Sequence record: PZ445432.1
Direction: 5' to 3' (one strand)
Length of the DNA stretch: 64,000 bases
Source of the DNA: a phage
Shown here: positions 2,283 through 41,519 of the stretch, one piece after another
Layout: every line of letters starts with the position of its first letter
Position numbering within the stretch: the first letter of the stretch is position 1
Translations under genes and position numbers: made by a program
Notes under the pieces: model-generated
Seen by the model: the letters and a program-made list of their open reading frames with translations, nothing else
Databases searched by the model: none
Told to the model about the DNA's origin: nothing

Positions 2283-4842
2283 CGAGAATCCTTTTCACGT
2301 TATCCAGATCTTTACATATAGCAATAAACTTATCGTCCTTGTACTTGCTATGATCTGGATGCTCTTTATCCATTGCAGCTAATTTCTTATACTCGAACTC
2401 TGCATCAAGTAATACACCCTTGACATAGCGAGTATATTCATCATCATCAATACAAGCGATTGATGGGTGCTGTTTCTTCATCTTACCACAAGAATAGTCA
2501 CGAGAACCTCCAGCTTCAGAATCTGAATCAATACCAATCGGACAGCCAGGAATACTGATACCACGGTCTTTCTGAATATTACGAATCAGGATTTCATTGT
2601 ATTGGTCGATTAAGTCTTCACGAACAATAGCAACTACGGAGTCATGAACCAGCATAACAATCTTCATCTCTTGCTCTAGGCCAAGAGAAATGATCTCATT
2701 ATCTGCATCTACAGCACCTAAAAGGAGACTATCAGAAGAAGCAGACTGAATGATTGCGTTAAATCCAGAACGAATTTCTTCCCCCTGAACGCCACGATCT
2801 TCAGAATGGATATTATGCAGACGACGTTTACGACCAAAGTGACTATAGATAAATCCATGATTCTTGATCTGATCGTGGCACTTATCGATCCAACGCTTAA
2901 GCTGTGGGAATTGACCAAAGTAAGTCTCAATGTACTCTTTAGCATCTGCAACAGTACACTCTACAAACGGTTCCCCAGTTTTAGCTGCTTGTTCGAGCAA
3001 TGCTTCGTTAACAGAATGTGCTACTTTAGCTGGGCCAGAACCATACAGAATACCAAAGGTGATTGCTTTAGCTGCTTGACGCAGAGCTGGGAATAACTTT
3101 TTAACATCACGAGGTTCGCATTGGAGCTTAAATACCATGTGTGCGATGTTAGAGTGGAAGTCAGGGTATTTATCAGGTTCATTTCTCATGTTGATAAATA
3201 CTTGTTGCATATTTCTATCACCAGATAGAGCAGCAGCATAATAAACTTCCGCAGTTGTTAAGTCCCACGCGATTACACGATACCCAGGAGGAGCTACTAC
3301 ACAACCCTTGATAATAGATTCATCACGAGGTAACTGTTGCAGGTTCAGTTTACCAGAAGAACTCAGACGACCAGAAGTGGTCATATGTTCATGGAAACCA
3401 GTACGAATGCACCCATCTGCATCAATACTCAGAAGAATCTTCTCAACATAAGTAGAGATTAGCTTAGTCAGCTTACGAATCTCTAGCAGAGTTTTAGCAA
3501 TTGGATGCTGCGTAGCCAGTTCATTCAGAGCTTCTGCATCCGTAGAATCTGCACCAGTATCTGTTAACTTACCAGTTGGAGTCAAACCAACATAATCGAA
3601 CAGAAGAACACGAAGTTGTTTAACAGAGTTCGGGTTAAATGCTTCATTCTGATCTTGTTCTAGCTGTTTAACTTCTGGATAAGTGTACAGTTTCTCACGG
3701 GCTTTATTCAGGTTATGGGTTAACTGATACTGAGCTTCTTTCAAACGATCAATAGAGATAGGTACGCCACGATCTTCGACACGTTGTAAGAATACGCAAC
3801 CAGGCATCAAAACATCGTAATACAGACTACAAAGTTTTTCATTCTTCTCAATCTTTGGTAAGAAGAAGTTGTGTAAACGTAGGGTAGCATCTGTATCTTT
3901 CGCAGCATATGGCCACATAATATCAAATGGAATTAAATCATAGGTGAAATCTTCTTTCTTGATTTTATGTGCTTTGCAGTAATCATCTTTGAACTTATCT
4001 AGTTCGAAGTCATAGTCACCCATATCGGTATACTTCATTGCTAGGGATTTCAAGCCATGAGTACCCCGACGTTCGTCTAGAACATAGTGCTGCAACATGG
4101 TATCATGGAGCCTGCGTTCTTTATGTGCTTTATCAAAAGTAAGCCCCAGATGGTACTTATAAAAGTGCATATCAAACTTTAAGTTGTGAAAAACAATAGT
4201 GTGGTTTTCACTATCTAGAATTTTCTGGAGATAATATACTGCAACCTCTGTGAGACAATCAGAATCGATATATACACCCTGATATTCTTGGTGAGATATA
4301 GAAACACCAAGCAGATAACCATCTCGACAGTATAGTGCTGAGGTTTCGGAGTCGAATGCGACGGGTCCGATAACCATATTATACACCATCTTGATATATT
4401 CTTCCGCCTCGTCAGGGTCAGTAATAGGACGGTAATCACCAGCTTTTGCAATCTTCTCACGACCATTGATAATATCGTGGATATTCTCTACTGTTGCATC
4501 AAAAACTGGTTTCATTTCAGGCTTAAAGTGTAACTGGGCTGGGCTGATACTCGCAATCCAGTTAGCATATCCATTATATTCTACACGTTTACCAGTATAG
4601 TCACCAATGCCTTTCTTACCTGCGAAATACAGGAAAGGTTCAGCACCTACTAGTATAACAAAATCATAATCATTCGGATCAAACGGGTTTTCTGGTGTTC
4701 CAATAGTAATGTGCTTTTTAAGCAAACGACCAGATAACTTCTCGTTACACATATGGAATACATCAACTTCCTCGCCGTATAGCTGGAAATGTTTATCGTA
4801 ACGAGTGTTACTTAGAGCTTTATCAACTACTGCGATTTTCAA
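2275..4842 (-). CDS. DNA polymerase, family A, with 3'-5' exonuclease domain
   Basis: 855-aa ORF with Pol A motif B (RQAAKAITFGILYGSG) and motif C (LVHDSVV); N-terminal exonuclease-like region. Confidence 0.95.
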   Translation of the reverse strand: MKIAVVDKALSNTRYDKHFQLYGEEVDVFHMCNEKLSGRLLKKHITIGTPENPFDPNDYDFVILVGAEPFLYFAGKKGIGDYTGKRVEYNGYANWIASISPAQLHFKPEMKPVFDATVENIHDIINGREKIAKAGDYRPITDPDEAEEYIKMVYNMVIGPVAFDSETSALYCRDGYLLGVSISHQEYQGVYIDSDCLTEVAVYYLQKILDSENHTIVFHNLKFDMHFYKYHLGLTFDKAHKERRLHDTMLQHYVLDERRGTHGLKSLAMKYTDMGDYDFELDKFKDDYCKAHKIKKEDFTYDLIPFDIMWPYAAKDTDATLRLHNFFLPKIEKNEKLCSLYYDVLMPGCVFLQRVEDRGVPISIDRLKEAQYQLTHNLNKAREKLYTYPEVKQLEQDQNEAFNPNSVKQLRVLLFDYVGLTPTGKLTDTGADSTDAEALNELATQHPIAKTLLEIRKLTKLISTYVEKILLSIDADGCIRTGFHEHMTTSGRLSSSGKLNLQQLPRDESIIKGCVVAPPGYRVIAWDLTTAEVYYAAALSGDRNMQQVFINMRNEPDKYPDFHSNIAHMVFKLQCEPRDVKKLFPALRQAAKAITFGILYGSGPAKVAHSVNEALLEQAAKTGEPFVECTVADAKEYIETYFGQFPQLKRWIDKCHDQIKNHGFIYSHFGRKRRLHNIHSEDRGVQGEEIRSGFNAIIQSASSDSLLLGAVDADNEIISLGLEQEMKIVMLVHDSVVAIVREDLIDQYNEILIRNIQKDRGISIPGCPIGIDSDSEAGGSRDYSCGKMKKQHPSIACIDDDEYTRYVKGVLLDAEFEYKKLAAMDKEHPDHSKYKDDKFIAICKDLDNVKRILGA

Positions 4843-4933: not shown

Positions 4934-5795
4934 CTAAAATTTCAATACGTTTTGCTAACATATCAATTTCATCTTTGTTTAAATCACCTGGATCCTTGCC
5001 TTCTGGCAGAAGAAAGTTAGCCACTACAGGTGTTAAACGCGTTTTTGTACGAATTAGCTTGGCCAATGCTTGTGCAGCTTTATTACCAGAAGCATCATTA
5101 TCTAGTAAGATAACAACAACTTTTACACCGGCAATAATATAAGGACTGAACTTATCTGCAATGTTATCCGAAGTAAACTGATGGGTACCAAAGCAGCAAG
5201 AAGCATAGTCTATACCATTATCCTCTAGGTTCAGCATATCAAAGATGCCTTCAACTAGAATAAGAACTGGAGTATTATATCGTACAGGAAAAATTGGCGG
5301 TGAAACTTGTTTTGGTTTTACTAAGTATTTAGGAGGGGCAGAACTGTTTATAGAACGACCCAAAAATAGGATATTGCGTCCAACAGCATCTGTGATTGGG
5401 AATACAATTCTGCCTTCCCAGCTCTCTTGGTGTTGGAAAGCAAAATATTTCTTCAAGGTCTTAGAACTGATACCTCGGAAATCACCTTCGAAAAGGCAGG
5501 CAGACTCAGGTATTGCAAGATTCATAGATCCATTTCTAATTTCTGAAATCTTTTTTCGTACCTGTGATAGTCTTGGGGACTGTCGGTACTGAGCCTCATT
5601 AAAATAATGGTAAATGCTCGGTATACCTTTACCGAAGCCACAACTCAAGCAGTGCATGACCCCTGACTCGGGGTCAATACGTAGACTTGGATGTTTATCA
5701 TCATGTTCAGGATTCAGGCAGCATATAAGAATATCCCCGCCTGTATCCTTGTACTCAATTCCTTTTAGATCAAGTAGTTCTGTTATTCTACTCAT
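4905..5795 (-). CDS. DNA primase (CHC2 zinc finger plus TOPRIM)
   Basis: CCLNPEHDDKHPSLRIDPESGVMHCLSCGFGKG zinc finger, then a TOPRIM-like acidic region (VEGIFD ... LLDNDASG). Confidence 0.85.
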   Translation of the reverse strand: MSRITELLDLKGIEYKDTGGDILICCLNPEHDDKHPSLRIDPESGVMHCLSCGFGKGIPSIYHYFNEAQYRQSPRLSQVRKKISEIRNGSMNLAIPESACLFEGDFRGISSKTLKKYFAFQHQESWEGRIVFPITDAVGRNILFLGRSINSSAPPKYLVKPKQVSPPIFPVRYNTPVLILVEGIFDMLNLEDNGIDYASCCFGTHQFTSDNIADKFSPYIIAGVKVVVILLDNDASGNKAAQALAKLIRTKTRLTPVVANFLLPEGKDPGDLNKDEIDMLAKRIEILVAESLKDLV

Positions 5796-35769: not shown

Positions 35770-36559
35770 ATAAATTAGAGAACAGCGGGCCGATTACGCT
35801 GAGTGCAGAATCCAAACCGGAGTGCATTGAATAGAGTCGGTGGGTTAGTTGTAAAACTAGTACACAGTGGGCGGCAATCCCGGTTAGTGGCTAGAACGTG
35901 TAAAATGGGGCGTCTGAAACCTCTCCCCTAAACTCTTCTCTAGTTTATAAATAGTGGGGTGTGGAAATCACTTATGTAGTAACACTGCCGATCTAGTATA
36001 AACGGTATTATCAAGCCGTAACTGGTGGAAGATGTAGGTTCGAATCCTACGATCGGTAAGAACTGGATAACTGGTGCTTTTAACGTAAAAGCTTCCGAGG
36101 TTAGTTGCGCACTGCCTAAACCACGCGGTAGTTGGTTCCAGACTAACCAACCAGTCTGCTGAATAGTTTTATTACGATTTAACTATGTCCAGGCTAAAGA
36201 AGAACTTTAGAAGGTATTCTAGGTGGTGAAGTTTTTCCTCCATATCGGAGTAGTTTTTCAAGCTACCAACAAAGTGGGAAATGCTGACATGAGAGATGTC
36301 ACTAATGGTGCACAATAGCACAGGTAATTCGCGATAACTCCTGTTGAGTAGCAGCAAAAGGCGGGAAGTCATGACCCCAAGCCTAACCGAGTCCTCAATA
36401 TACCGCAGGACATAACCACTAAGTCACCCTGACTTAAACTGGAAAATAATAGACGTTACTGTATTTTGTCTTGAAATACTTAATGAGTGAGACTTATGAC
36501 TCTCCCGGTATCGTCTGTATTTTTAAGAGTTTTTACGAGAGTTCTTAAAAATACTTAAA
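35770..36559 (+). ncRNA. ORF-free transcribed region, possible stable small RNAs
   Basis: About 800 nt with no plus-strand ORF, downstream of a consensus promoter; contains several hairpins and tRNA-like fragments. Confidence 0.3.
35987..36058 (+). tRNA. tRNA-like element (possible pseudo-tRNA)
   Basis: Acceptor stem GCCGATC/GATCGGT and T-arm GTAGG-TTCGAAT-CCTAC are intact, but no canonical D or anticodon stem could be folded by hand. Confidence 0.3.
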
Positions 36560-38537: not shown

Positions 38538-38615
38538 GGTTCTCAAGCTCATATGGTATGAGCACCCAGCTCATAACTGGAAGGTACGTAGGTTCGAATC
38601 CTCGGGGAGCCACCA
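38538..38615 (+). tRNA. tRNA-Met/Ile2 (anticodon CAT)
   Basis: Acceptor GGTTCTC/GGGAGCC with G-U pairs, D stem GCTC/GAGC, anticodon loop CTCATAA, TTCGAAT T-loop, encoded CCA; T stem has mismatches. Confidence 0.5.
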
Positions 38616-39018: not shown

Positions 39019-39120
39019 TACCTGTGAAACTAAAAGATTATTATATTGGTTGGTTTGTGGGACTAGTAGTAGGATTTTCACTAGGCTATAATATGTATCA
39101 ACTAATAAACTGATTACATG

Positions 39121-39193
39121 GGGGTGTAATCGAATTGGCATAGGTACTGTACTTAAAATTCAGGTTTTGTGGGTTCGAATCCCAGCGAGGCGT
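39121..39193 (+). tRNA. tRNA-like element (anticodon-like loop TAA; acceptor stem does not pair)
   Basis: Good T-arm (GTGGG-TTCGAAT-CCCAG) and anticodon-like hairpin CTGTA-CTTAAAA-TTCAG, but no 5'/3' acceptor pairing found; a -10 TATAAT lies upstream. Confidence 0.25.
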
Positions 39194-39241
39194 AACTGCC
39201 TGGTGTGATAGAGGCATCATTCCACTAATATTGGAAAACTA

Positions 39242-39477: not shown

Positions 39478-39568
39478 GGAAGAGCAAATCGAATTGGCGA
39501 CGAAAACCGCTTGGAAAGTGGCTGACCGGTAAAACGGCTTGAGAGTTCAAATCTCTCCTCTTCCGCCA
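39478..39568 (+). tRNA. tRNA-Ser (anticodon GGA), type II
   Basis: Acceptor GGAAGAG/CTCTTCC, anticodon loop TTGGAAA, long variable arm, T-arm GAGAG-TTCAAAT-CTCTC, encoded CCA. Confidence 0.6.
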
Positions 39569-39580
39569 AACAATTTATAT

Positions 39581-39675
39581 GGTAGGTCAATCCAACGGCT
39601 GGCGCTGGACTCCGACTTGAAATCGGTTGATCGTAGTGATACGGTGTAAGGGTTCGATCCCCTTACCTACCTCCA
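39581..39675 (+). tRNA. tRNA-Ser (anticodon TGA), type II
   Basis: Perfect acceptor GGTAGGT/ACCTACC, anticodon loop CTTGAAA, variable-arm hairpin CGTA-GTGA-TACG, T-arm AAGGG-TTCGATC-CCCTT, encoded CCA; D-loop unusually long. Confidence 0.5.
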
Positions 39676-41085: not shown

Positions 41086-41242
41086 TAACCTAAAAGTCAA
41101 GATCGACAAACAAAAGAAACGTGTAGAAGTAGAGATTGGTGAAGAACGTGTAGCCTTCACCTTTGAATTTCTACAACAAATGGCAATGACAGTTATGACT
41201 GATAAGTCTCCTGTTATTGAAAAAGAAATCCCGTTGAAATAA
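41078..41242 (+). CDS. hypothetical small protein (54 aa)
   Basis: ATG overlapping the upstream stop; below the track's size cut-off. Confidence 0.3.
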   Translation: MADNLKVKIDKQKKRVEVEIGEERVAFTFEFLQQMAMTVMTDKSPVIEKEIPLK

Positions 41243-41250
41243 CGGGTTCT

Positions 41251-41337
41251 GCTGGGTTGGCAGAATGGTTGAATGCACCTGATTTGTAATCAGGAGGAGT
41301 AATCCCGTTGCAGGTTCGAATCCTGTGCCCAGCACCA
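41251..41337 (+). tRNA. type II (long variable arm) tRNA, anticodon reads TGT (Thr?)
   Basis: Acceptor GCTGGGT/GCCCAGC, 3-bp D stem, perfect anticodon stem CCTGA/TCAGG with loop TTTGTAA, variable-arm hairpin GGA-GTAA-TCC, TTCGAAT T-loop, encoded CCA. Confidence 0.5.
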
Positions 41338-41351
41338 ATTTAAGGACTATT

Positions 41352-41519
41352 ATGTTTAAACTGTTAGTAGTTATCTGGTATAGTCAATCAAATAGAGCGA
41401 ATACCTCCCACGTTATAGACTTTACTACTAAAAATGAAGCTGAAAAAGCATATGCTAATTTAATAGAACGCAATAAAGAATCTCGTAGTATAGTTTATGA
41501 AGTGACTAAACTTTATTAA
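41352..41519 (+). CDS. hypothetical protein
   Basis: ATG with RBS AAGGAC just after the tRNA; the track ORF begins earlier, inside the tRNA. Confidence 0.4.
   Translation: MFKLLVVIWYSQSNRANTSHVIDFTTKNEAEKAYANLIERNKESRSIVYEVTKLY

Follow-up and report, generated by a model that had tools for sequence, protein, structure and literature searches.

Position and fold of the 87-nt tRNA gene

The window, a 64,000-nt stretch of phage DNA (sequence record PZ445432.1), carries on its plus strand at 41251–41337 an 87-nt gene that ARAGORN identified as tRNA-Thr, with the anticodon tgt at position 35. The gene matched the full length of the Rfam model RF00005 with 58.9 bits (gathering score 29, E = 4.7e-11). 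As a gene it is not new, being already labelled tRNA-Thr in the GenBank record MZ501074 (HildyBeyeler). The features of the locus are as follows.

41251–41337, plus strand: whole tRNA-Thr(UGU) gene with encoded CCA (ARAGORN; Rfam; MZ501074 annotation)
41251–41257, plus strand: 5' strand of the acceptor, GCUGGGU, with its partner GCCCAGC at 41327–41333; carries G1-C72, C2-G71, G4-C69 and G5-C68 (sequence)
41260–41276, plus strand: D arm with the 3-bp stem GCA/UGC plus G13·A22 and the loop residues A14, A15, U16, G18 and G19 (sequence; Rfam)
41278–41294, plus strand: anticodon arm CCUGA-UUUGUAA-UCAGG, 5 of 5 stem pairs formed; contains U36AAUC|A41 (sequence)
41285–41287, plus strand: anticodon UGU (34–36), reading ACA (ARAGORN position 35; Rfam alignment)
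41295–41309, plus strand: variable region AGGAGUAAUCCCGUU, 15 nt, with GGA at 41296–41298, the GUAA tetraloop at 41299–41302, UCC at 41303–41305 and an unpaired CGUU ending in U48
41310–41326, plus strand: T arm GCAGG-UUCGAAU-CCUGU (sequence; Rfam; alignment of homologues)
41334, plus strand: discriminator A73; A or U in all members of the lineage described below, never the G73 of tRNA-Ser
41352–41519, plus strand: 55-aa ORF (phrog_15108, unknown function; alignment with T5; PHROGs; annotated bas33_0123 in HildyBeyeler)

The acceptor, T arm, perfect 5-bp anticodon stem and variable-arm hairpin described in a sequence-only reading of this locus were all recovered from the sequence, by ARAGORN and by Rfam. 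The acceptor stem is 7 bp long and ends in a U7·G66 wobble pair. U8 and G9 separate it from the D stem, and A26 precedes the anticodon stem. Three Watson-Crick pairs in the D stem followed by a non-Watson-Crick 13–22 pair, and a variable region of more than 10 nt with a stem-loop (here 15 nt with a GGA-GUAA-UCC hairpin), are the hallmarks of class II tRNAs, among which tRNA-Sec is also counted. In reviews, the class II tRNAs are those for Ser, Leu and Tyr (PMC7609411, PMC9976931). The acceptor and T stems have the canonical 7/5 layout and not the 8/4, 9/3 or 9/4 layouts of allo-tRNAs and tRNA-Sec-like molecules. Minimum-free-energy folding of the 87-nt tRNA as a single sequence did not give a cloverleaf, which is common for unmodified tRNA sequences, and alignment-based folding was used instead.

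The 7-nt loop TTTGTAA had been read as placing TGT (Thr) at positions 34–36, and both ARAGORN and the Rfam covariance model, which aligned UUUGUAA to the anticodon loop, agree with this register. The same reading pointed out that GTA (Tyr) lies one nucleotide out of register. This is correct (G35-U36-A37) but uninformative, because every tRNA-Thr(UGU) with A37 contains UGUA, and E. coli thrU likewise has UUGUAA. A tRNA-Tyr with a shifted anticodon loop, in which GUA would be used one base 3' of the standard register or would cause frameshifting, would match the class II shape and A73 of bacterial tRNA-Tyr. With a 5-bp stem and a 7-nt loop, however, UGU can only be flanked by U33 and A37, and the covariance model likewise places UGU at 34–36. 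TyrRS uses A73, G34 and U35 (PMC9976931), and the window tRNA has U34 and G35, so that only A73 matches. A separate, normal tRNA-Tyr is encoded by T5, HildyBeyeler and PX29, and the body of the 87-nt tRNA is not close to any of these genes; alignment with the tRNA-Tyr of T5, HildyBeyeler, PX29 and E. coli revealed only the similarity of generic tRNA positions. A Tyr origin was rejected on these grounds, the shifted register is refuted by the covariance model, and a Tyr identity can be practically discounted.

A 10-nt direct repeat, AATCCCGTTG, occurs at 41227–41236, at the end of the upstream ORF, and at 41301–41310 in the variable arm. The upstream copy is part of a CCCGT/ACGGG hairpin (41230–41246) located 4 nt before the tRNA, and in the variable arm other T5-like alleles have CCCATT or CCCACT. 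It may be due to chance or be a footprint of recombination.

Conservation and covariation in phages and bacteria

The window is the DNA of a T5-like phage (Demerecviridae, Tequintavirus), and a segment of 801 nt around the tRNA is 100% identical to Escherichia phage HildyBeyeler (Bas33, MZ501074). Fifty-three phage records contain the 87-nt sequence itself without any difference (100% identity), and about 100 T5-like phages of Salmonella and Escherichia match it at 94% identity or higher, whereas across the 801 nt the flanks in the same phages are only about 95–96% identical. Identity of the tRNA in the face of diverging flanks indicates purifying selection and not a sequencing error. The possibility of a reading error at this locus, raised earlier, is thus dismissed by the identical sequence in dozens of independent phage genomes. 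The proposed comparison with tRNAs of related phages also revealed homologues with the same loop beyond the T5-like group. The T4-like Aeromonas phages PX29 and Ah1 carry an 85-nt homologue (77% identity), in which the stems show compensatory changes and the variable hairpin is CC-GAAA-GG.

At the same slot, T5 carries a 75-nt class I tRNA-Thr(UGU) (T5t03), and the sequences flanking it on both sides are identical in the alignment. This T5-type allele is present in about 310 phage records at 90% identity or more. In the window, the 87-nt tRNA and the 55-aa ORF stand in place of T5t03. The two tRNAs share the anticodon and the presumed role, whereas their bodies are unrelated and T5t03 has several stem mismatches. 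Some T5-like phages would have acquired the 87-nt tRNA and the ORF as a cassette that replaced the type I tRNA-Thr. The ORF gave no informative family match (in PHROGs, only phrog_15108). A search of 5,426 complete E. coli genomes by blastn with the 87-nt tRNA gave no match, and a host-derived origin was ruled out on this basis.

Compared with the HildyBeyeler genome as deposited, 5,041 bp are missing from the window. The junction (39170–39184) lies within a 15-nt repeat, GGGTTCGAATCCCA, common to two tRNA T arms, and was found in no phage record. The missing segment includes the annotated tRNAs for Tyr, Glu, Trp, Phe, Cys, Asn, Asp, Lys, Ala and Leu(UAG), to which ARAGORN adds a Pro. The tRNA-Leu(UAA) gene is truncated at the junction, leaving a chimeric tRNA-like remnant at about 39120–39196.

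Further members of the lineage were sought with a pattern in which UUGUAA had to lie at the appropriate distance downstream of a D arm of the Ser type; conservation of these two elements is therefore by construction, and only the other regions are independent. With strict patterns, IMG/VR yielded only isolate phages, and a first scan of bacterial genomes with a narrow pattern gave no match; metagenomes and bacteria came within reach only once the D arm was relaxed. The lineage pattern then matched 22 metagenome contigs, several with phage-like tRNA arrays, 9 viral contigs and 14 bacterial genomes belonging to Acetobacteraceae (including a Roseomonas isolate), Rhodospirillaceae, Eremiobacterota (including complete chromosomes) and Thermoleophilia. 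Among the 36 new metagenome and bacterial matches, 31 were called tRNA-Thr(tgt) of 80–87 nt by ARAGORN. The other five were two tRNA-Ser(UGA), one match without a tRNA call, and two (L134 and L140) with the window's own 87-nt sequence.

The Acetobacteraceae homologue is close to the window tRNA in the acceptor (GCUGGGG versus GCUGGGU), anticodon loop and T arm. One bacterial locus includes genes for CysRS, a SpoU methylase and a sigma factor, followed by tRNA-Thr(UGU), tRNA-Tyr and tRNA-Gly, an order that resembles the E. coli thrU-tyrU-glyT operon and places the long-arm gene in a thrU-like position. At another bacterial locus, IleRS and RibF are encoded near the long-arm tRNA-Thr(UGU). Judging by this housekeeping context, some bacteria use the long-arm gene as a chromosomal tRNA-Thr. 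The original puzzle was built on the statement that, in bacteria, only tRNAs for Leu, Ser, Tyr and Sec have long arms; for these chromosomes, that statement does not hold.

For the analysis of covariation, 24 distinct homologous sequences were aligned (alignment A3), and pairs were counted on the RNAalifold structure with the addition of the 15–48 tertiary pair. RNAalifold on its own predicted the acceptor, the 3-bp D stem, the anticodon stem, a 3-bp variable hairpin and the T stem. In this set, 98.9% of the cells pair, against 74% in shuffles, and in 19 of the 24 pairs both partners change. The covariation score was 0.647, as compared with 0.06–0.12 when the partners were slid by 1–3 columns, and none of 500 shuffles reached 0.647. 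All seven acceptor pairs are kept, six of them with changes on both sides, and the D-stem pair 12–23 covaries between A-U and C-G. The three pairs of the variable hairpin also all change on both sides, and its loops are mostly GAAA, GUAA and GCGA, which fit the GNRA tetraloop consensus. The 15–48 pair is A-U in T5-like phages and G-C in the remaining lineage members. The molecule is a five-arm cloverleaf in which every helix, including that of the extra hairpin, is kept by compensatory change.

The D arm of the window tRNA, UGGCAGAAUGGUUGAAUGCA, is of the tRNA-Ser type, in keeping with the earlier impression that a class II shape with a Thr anticodon looks derived. Class II tRNA-Ser(UGA) of bacteria and phages have nearly the same D arm (GGCAGAGUGGUUGAAUGC) with a 3-bp stem, a long variable hairpin and, in some members, a similar anticodon stem. 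They differ in having G2-C71, G73, a longer variable stem and UGA, whereas the window tRNA has C2-G71, A73, a 3-bp stem capped by a GNRA loop, and UGU. A scan of IMG/VR for GCARARTGGYTGAATGCA found mostly tRNA-Ser(UGA/GCU) and, in addition, long-arm tRNAs with Thr(UGU), Cys(GCA), Trp(CCA) and Tyr anticodons. Within this set, sharing the D-arm motif, the acceptor end was distributed as follows.

Ser anticodon: G2-C71 and G73 in 54 of 57
Thr(UGU) anticodon: C2-G71 and A73 in 6 of 6
Cys anticodon: U73 in 3 of 3
Trp anticodon: A1-U72 and G73 in 1 of 1

Because the acceptor end was absent from the search pattern, its association with the anticodon is independent evidence. Since the acceptor end changes with the anticodon, these genes represent coherent isoacceptors built on a class II core and not serine tRNAs with mutated anticodons. 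We infer that a tRNA-Ser-type core was either the ancestor of the scaffold or the form to which it converged. The tRNA-Ser genes of the phage itself were rejected as the source, as their D arms differ.

On sequence grounds, the lineage is defined by a core of the Ser type, acceptor determinants of the Thr type and a short variable hairpin with a GNRA cap, and it is common to phages and a few bacterial clades. No described long-arm tRNA-Thr was found in the open-access literature, a search that older subscription papers on T5 tRNAs could escape, and a review of non-canonical tRNAs mentions none (PMC7609411). The lineage of class II-shaped tRNA-Thr(UGU) is thus apparently undescribed.

Amino acid identity

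The bacterial Thr determinants are G1-C72, C2-G71, G4-C69, G5-C68, G35 and U36 (PMC9976931, Table 1), and the window tRNA has all of them. Among the 24 lineage members, C2-G71 is present in 24 and G1-C72 in 23, with A or U as N73. In the window tRNA, U36 is followed by A37, the context for t6A modification. E. coli thrU shares G1-C72, C2-G71, A73, U36-A37, the anticodon loop YUUGUAA (6 of 7 loop bases) and 4 of 5 pairs of the anticodon stem. It differs in being a class I tRNA of 76 nt: its variable loop has 5 nt, against 15 nt with a hairpin in the 87-nt tRNA; its D stem has 4 bp, against 3 bp in the Ser-type D arm of the 87-nt tRNA; and it has G15-C48 instead of A15-U48. Host ThrRS would be expected to charge the 87-nt tRNA with threonine, and the tRNA would decode ACA and probably also ACU and ACG through wobble. 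The gene is very likely a genuine elongator tRNA-Thr(UGU), predicted to accept Thr and to read ACA, with class II (long-variable-arm) architecture.

The Ser-type D arm, which in IMG/VR belongs mostly to tRNA-Ser(UGA/GCU), could alternatively mark a tRNA-Ser derivative still charged by SerRS, in which case ACA would be read as serine in a deliberate or tolerated mistranslation. The anticodon arm of the PX29 homologue differs by about 3 positions from that of a phage tRNA-Ser(UGA). Bacterial tRNA-Ser have variable stems longer than 3 bp, and the variable arm of the window tRNA, though present, has a stem of only 3 bp. SerRS ignores the anticodon and recognises G73, G2-C71 and the large variable arm, and C11-G24, another listed Ser determinant, occurs in the window tRNA (PMC9976931). 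Against charging by SerRS, the window tRNA has A73 in place of G73 and, in place of G2-C71, C2-G71, which is listed as an anti-determinant against SerRS (PMC9976931). Moreover, within the family sharing the D arm, a change of anticodon goes together with a change of the acceptor end, and bacteria keep the long-arm gene in the thrU position. Charging with serine is therefore considered highly improbable.

A class II body with A73 and A15-U48 might also be charged by LeuRS, as in nematodes, where tRNAs with Gly or Ile anticodons accept leucine. The spacing before G18 in tRNA-Leu differs from the three-base Ser type, and the window tRNA has three bases (A14, A15 and U16) before G18, as in tRNA-Ser. 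LeuRS determinants are A73, A15-U48, G18G19 and A20a, and E. coli LeuRS ignores the anticodon and the variable arm (PMC9976931). The window tRNA has the first three; position 20a is U and not A. In the lineage, A15-U48 and A73 are not conserved, as most members have G15-C48 and several have U73, and the window tRNA has the complete set of Thr determinants. A leucine tRNA thus appears extremely unlikely, and the occurrence of A73 and A15-U48, which are also LeuRS determinants, in the T5-like version is to be counted as a point against the predicted Thr identity.

The suggestion that the tRNA is identity-switched, with the anticodon and the charging in disagreement, is likewise not borne out, as the acceptor end has the bacterial ThrRS determinants and lacks those of SerRS. 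Nematode nev-tRNAs and bacterial allo-tRNAs are class II-like tRNAs with 'wrong' anticodons that are charged by LeuRS or SerRS regardless, and allo-tRNAs have 8/4 or 9/3 acceptor/T stems. The 87-nt tRNA shares with them the long variable arm and an anticodon outside Leu, Ser and Tyr, and differs in its canonical 7/5 stems and in acceptor determinants that match the anticodon; hence, no recoding is implied. Recoding by mischarging appears unlikely from the determinants present. The variable-loop side is the one from which class II synthetases approach tRNA, and ThrRS might be obstructed by the extra arm.

The lineage is a conserved, covariation-supported exception to the class II rule, with identity elements that match the anticodon. 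It offers a natural test of the tolerance of ThrRS, EF-Tu, the t6A enzymes and the ribosome to an extra arm, and suggests a route for re-assigning a class II core from Ser to Thr. For annotation, a long arm alone is no ground for re-assignment of the isotype.

Role in the phage and other extra-arm tRNAs

No other tRNA-Thr was found in the 64-kb window by ARAGORN and Rfam. In 40 long ORFs of the window (38.8% GC), ACA makes up 25.8% of the Thr codons and occurs at 13.5 per 1000, about twice its frequency in E. coli, and supply of this tRNA for ACA codons is a plausible role. From its sequence features, the most likely function of the 87-nt tRNA would be ordinary threonine decoding. Probably, it also takes over from host tRNA-Thr(UGU) after the host molecule has been destroyed by a defence nuclease, for instance AriB of PARIS.

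AriB cleaves U36AAUC|A41 in E. coli tRNA-Thr(UGU) (Belukhina et al. 2025, PMC12409363), and its second subunit has been modelled contacting U16-U17 of the D loop. In the same study, the Lys, Thr and Asn tRNAs of T5 together neutralised PARIS, and T7, which has no tRNAs, needed Lys and Thr. Bas33 encodes tRNA-Thr(UGU) and not tRNA-Lys(UUU), and T5 tRNA-Lys alone rescued it (PMC12409363). As indirect evidence, rescue by tRNA-Lys alone fits the 87-nt tRNA working as a tRNA-Thr under nuclease attack; the Bas33 stock used for the rescue may differ from the window, which is without 5 kb of the deposited genome. The word 'variable' is absent from the main text of that paper (PMC12409363).

The 87-nt tRNA keeps U36AAUC|A41, with the host-like UAAUCA, and U16, whereas T5t03 has G39 next to the AriB cleavage site. 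The 86-nt tRNA-Asn(GUU) of HildyBeyeler similarly keeps the host-like U36AAUC|C41. Two of the three main targets of AriB (Thr and Asn) are thus extra-arm tRNAs with unmutated sites in Bas33. Retention of U36AAUC|A41 and U16, which are the features AriB uses on the host tRNA, at a site mutated in the type I tRNA-Thr of T5 could mean that the molecule is a decoy, i.e. a poorly charged or uncharged tRNA-like RNA that mainly soaks up host tRNA nucleases instead of serving translation, and non-productive competition was raised as a possibility by the PARIS authors (PMC12409363). A decoy is at odds with the full acceptor and ThrRS determinants, the encoded CCA, the canonical T loop and the conserved tertiary pairs. 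It is also at odds with the 87-nt tRNA being the only tRNA-Thr of the phage and with bacterial homologues located in housekeeping tRNA operons. Hence, it is regarded as improbable.

A more speculative role, which we consider conceivable though rather doubtful, is that the GUAA-capped (GNRA) hairpin serves as architectural armour, by which the Toprim nuclease AriB, and perhaps other defence effectors that target tRNA, would be evaded through steric exclusion; the same would apply to the phage tRNA-Asn(GUU), as part of a general counter-defence strategy. Both tRNAs would keep the host-like cleavage sequence and remain substrates of host synthetases. The extra arm leaves the core immediately 3' of the cleaved strand, making steric protection conceivable. 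In favour of such armour, as circumstantial support, T5 alleles mutate the U36AAUC site that the Thr and Asn tRNAs of Bas33 keep, and Bas33 needs only tRNA-Lys. Against it, a housekeeping tRNA of bacteria is built in the same way. If true, class II-shaped versions of class I isoacceptors in the tRNA arrays of phages (Thr, Asn, Trp, Cys and a Lys with a D-loop hairpin) would be a strategy distinct from the point-mutation escape of T5. The PARIS nuclease has tRNA-Thr(UGU) among its prime targets, and a phage allele that keeps the target sequence and changes the architecture would allow a direct test of recognition by the nuclease outside the anticodon stem.

Several other tRNAs with extra arms were observed. 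The 86-nt tRNA-Asn(GUU) of HildyBeyeler (L001:2128–2213), located within the stretch deleted from the window, has G73 and an AUCC-GCAA-GGAU variable hairpin, and about 600 phage records contain extra-arm tRNA-Asn genes of 83–86 nt, among them those of T5-like phages and of T4-like phages of Klebsiella, Enterobacter and Aeromonas. Erwinia phage pEp_SNUABM_01 encodes an 87-nt tRNA-Trp(CCA) with D and T arms closely resembling those of the window tRNA, a GGG-GAAA-CCC variable hairpin, and the Trp-type A1-U72 and G73. The same phage encodes an 86-nt tRNA-Asn and an annotated 87-nt tRNA-Lys(UUU) with a GAC-GCAA-GUC hairpin in the D loop (set L012:2492–2578, 3755–3841 and 3904–3989). Viral and metagenome contigs with phage-like tRNA arrays (L054, L091, L098, L141 and L146), a sample biased by the search motif, include extra-arm tRNAs with Cys(GCA) anticodons and U73 and single examples with anticodons for Trp, Phe and Val. 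The reverse case is found in HildyBeyeler, in which tRNA-Leu(UAA) and tRNA-Leu(UAG) are 77 nt long without a long variable arm (L001:180–256 and 5142–5218), the former being the gene cut at the window junction; the tRNA-Leu(UAG) of T5 is 85 nt.

Elsewhere in the window, ARAGORN called a 74-nt 'tRNA-Ser(act)' at 35986–36059 (Rfam tRNA, 39 bits). The call is repeated in T5, inside the annotated stable RNA rnaX, and the locus probably encodes a tRNA-like RNA rather than a serine tRNA. Missed by ARAGORN were 39478–39568 and 39581–39675, which are annotated as class II tRNA-Ser genes in HildyBeyeler; for one of the two, the only Rfam match was to tRNA-Sec, at 38 bits and below threshold. A 75-nt tRNA at 38538–38612 (Rfam, 38 bits), also missed, is probably the tRNA-Ile(CAU) that T5 has beside tRNA-Ser(GCU).
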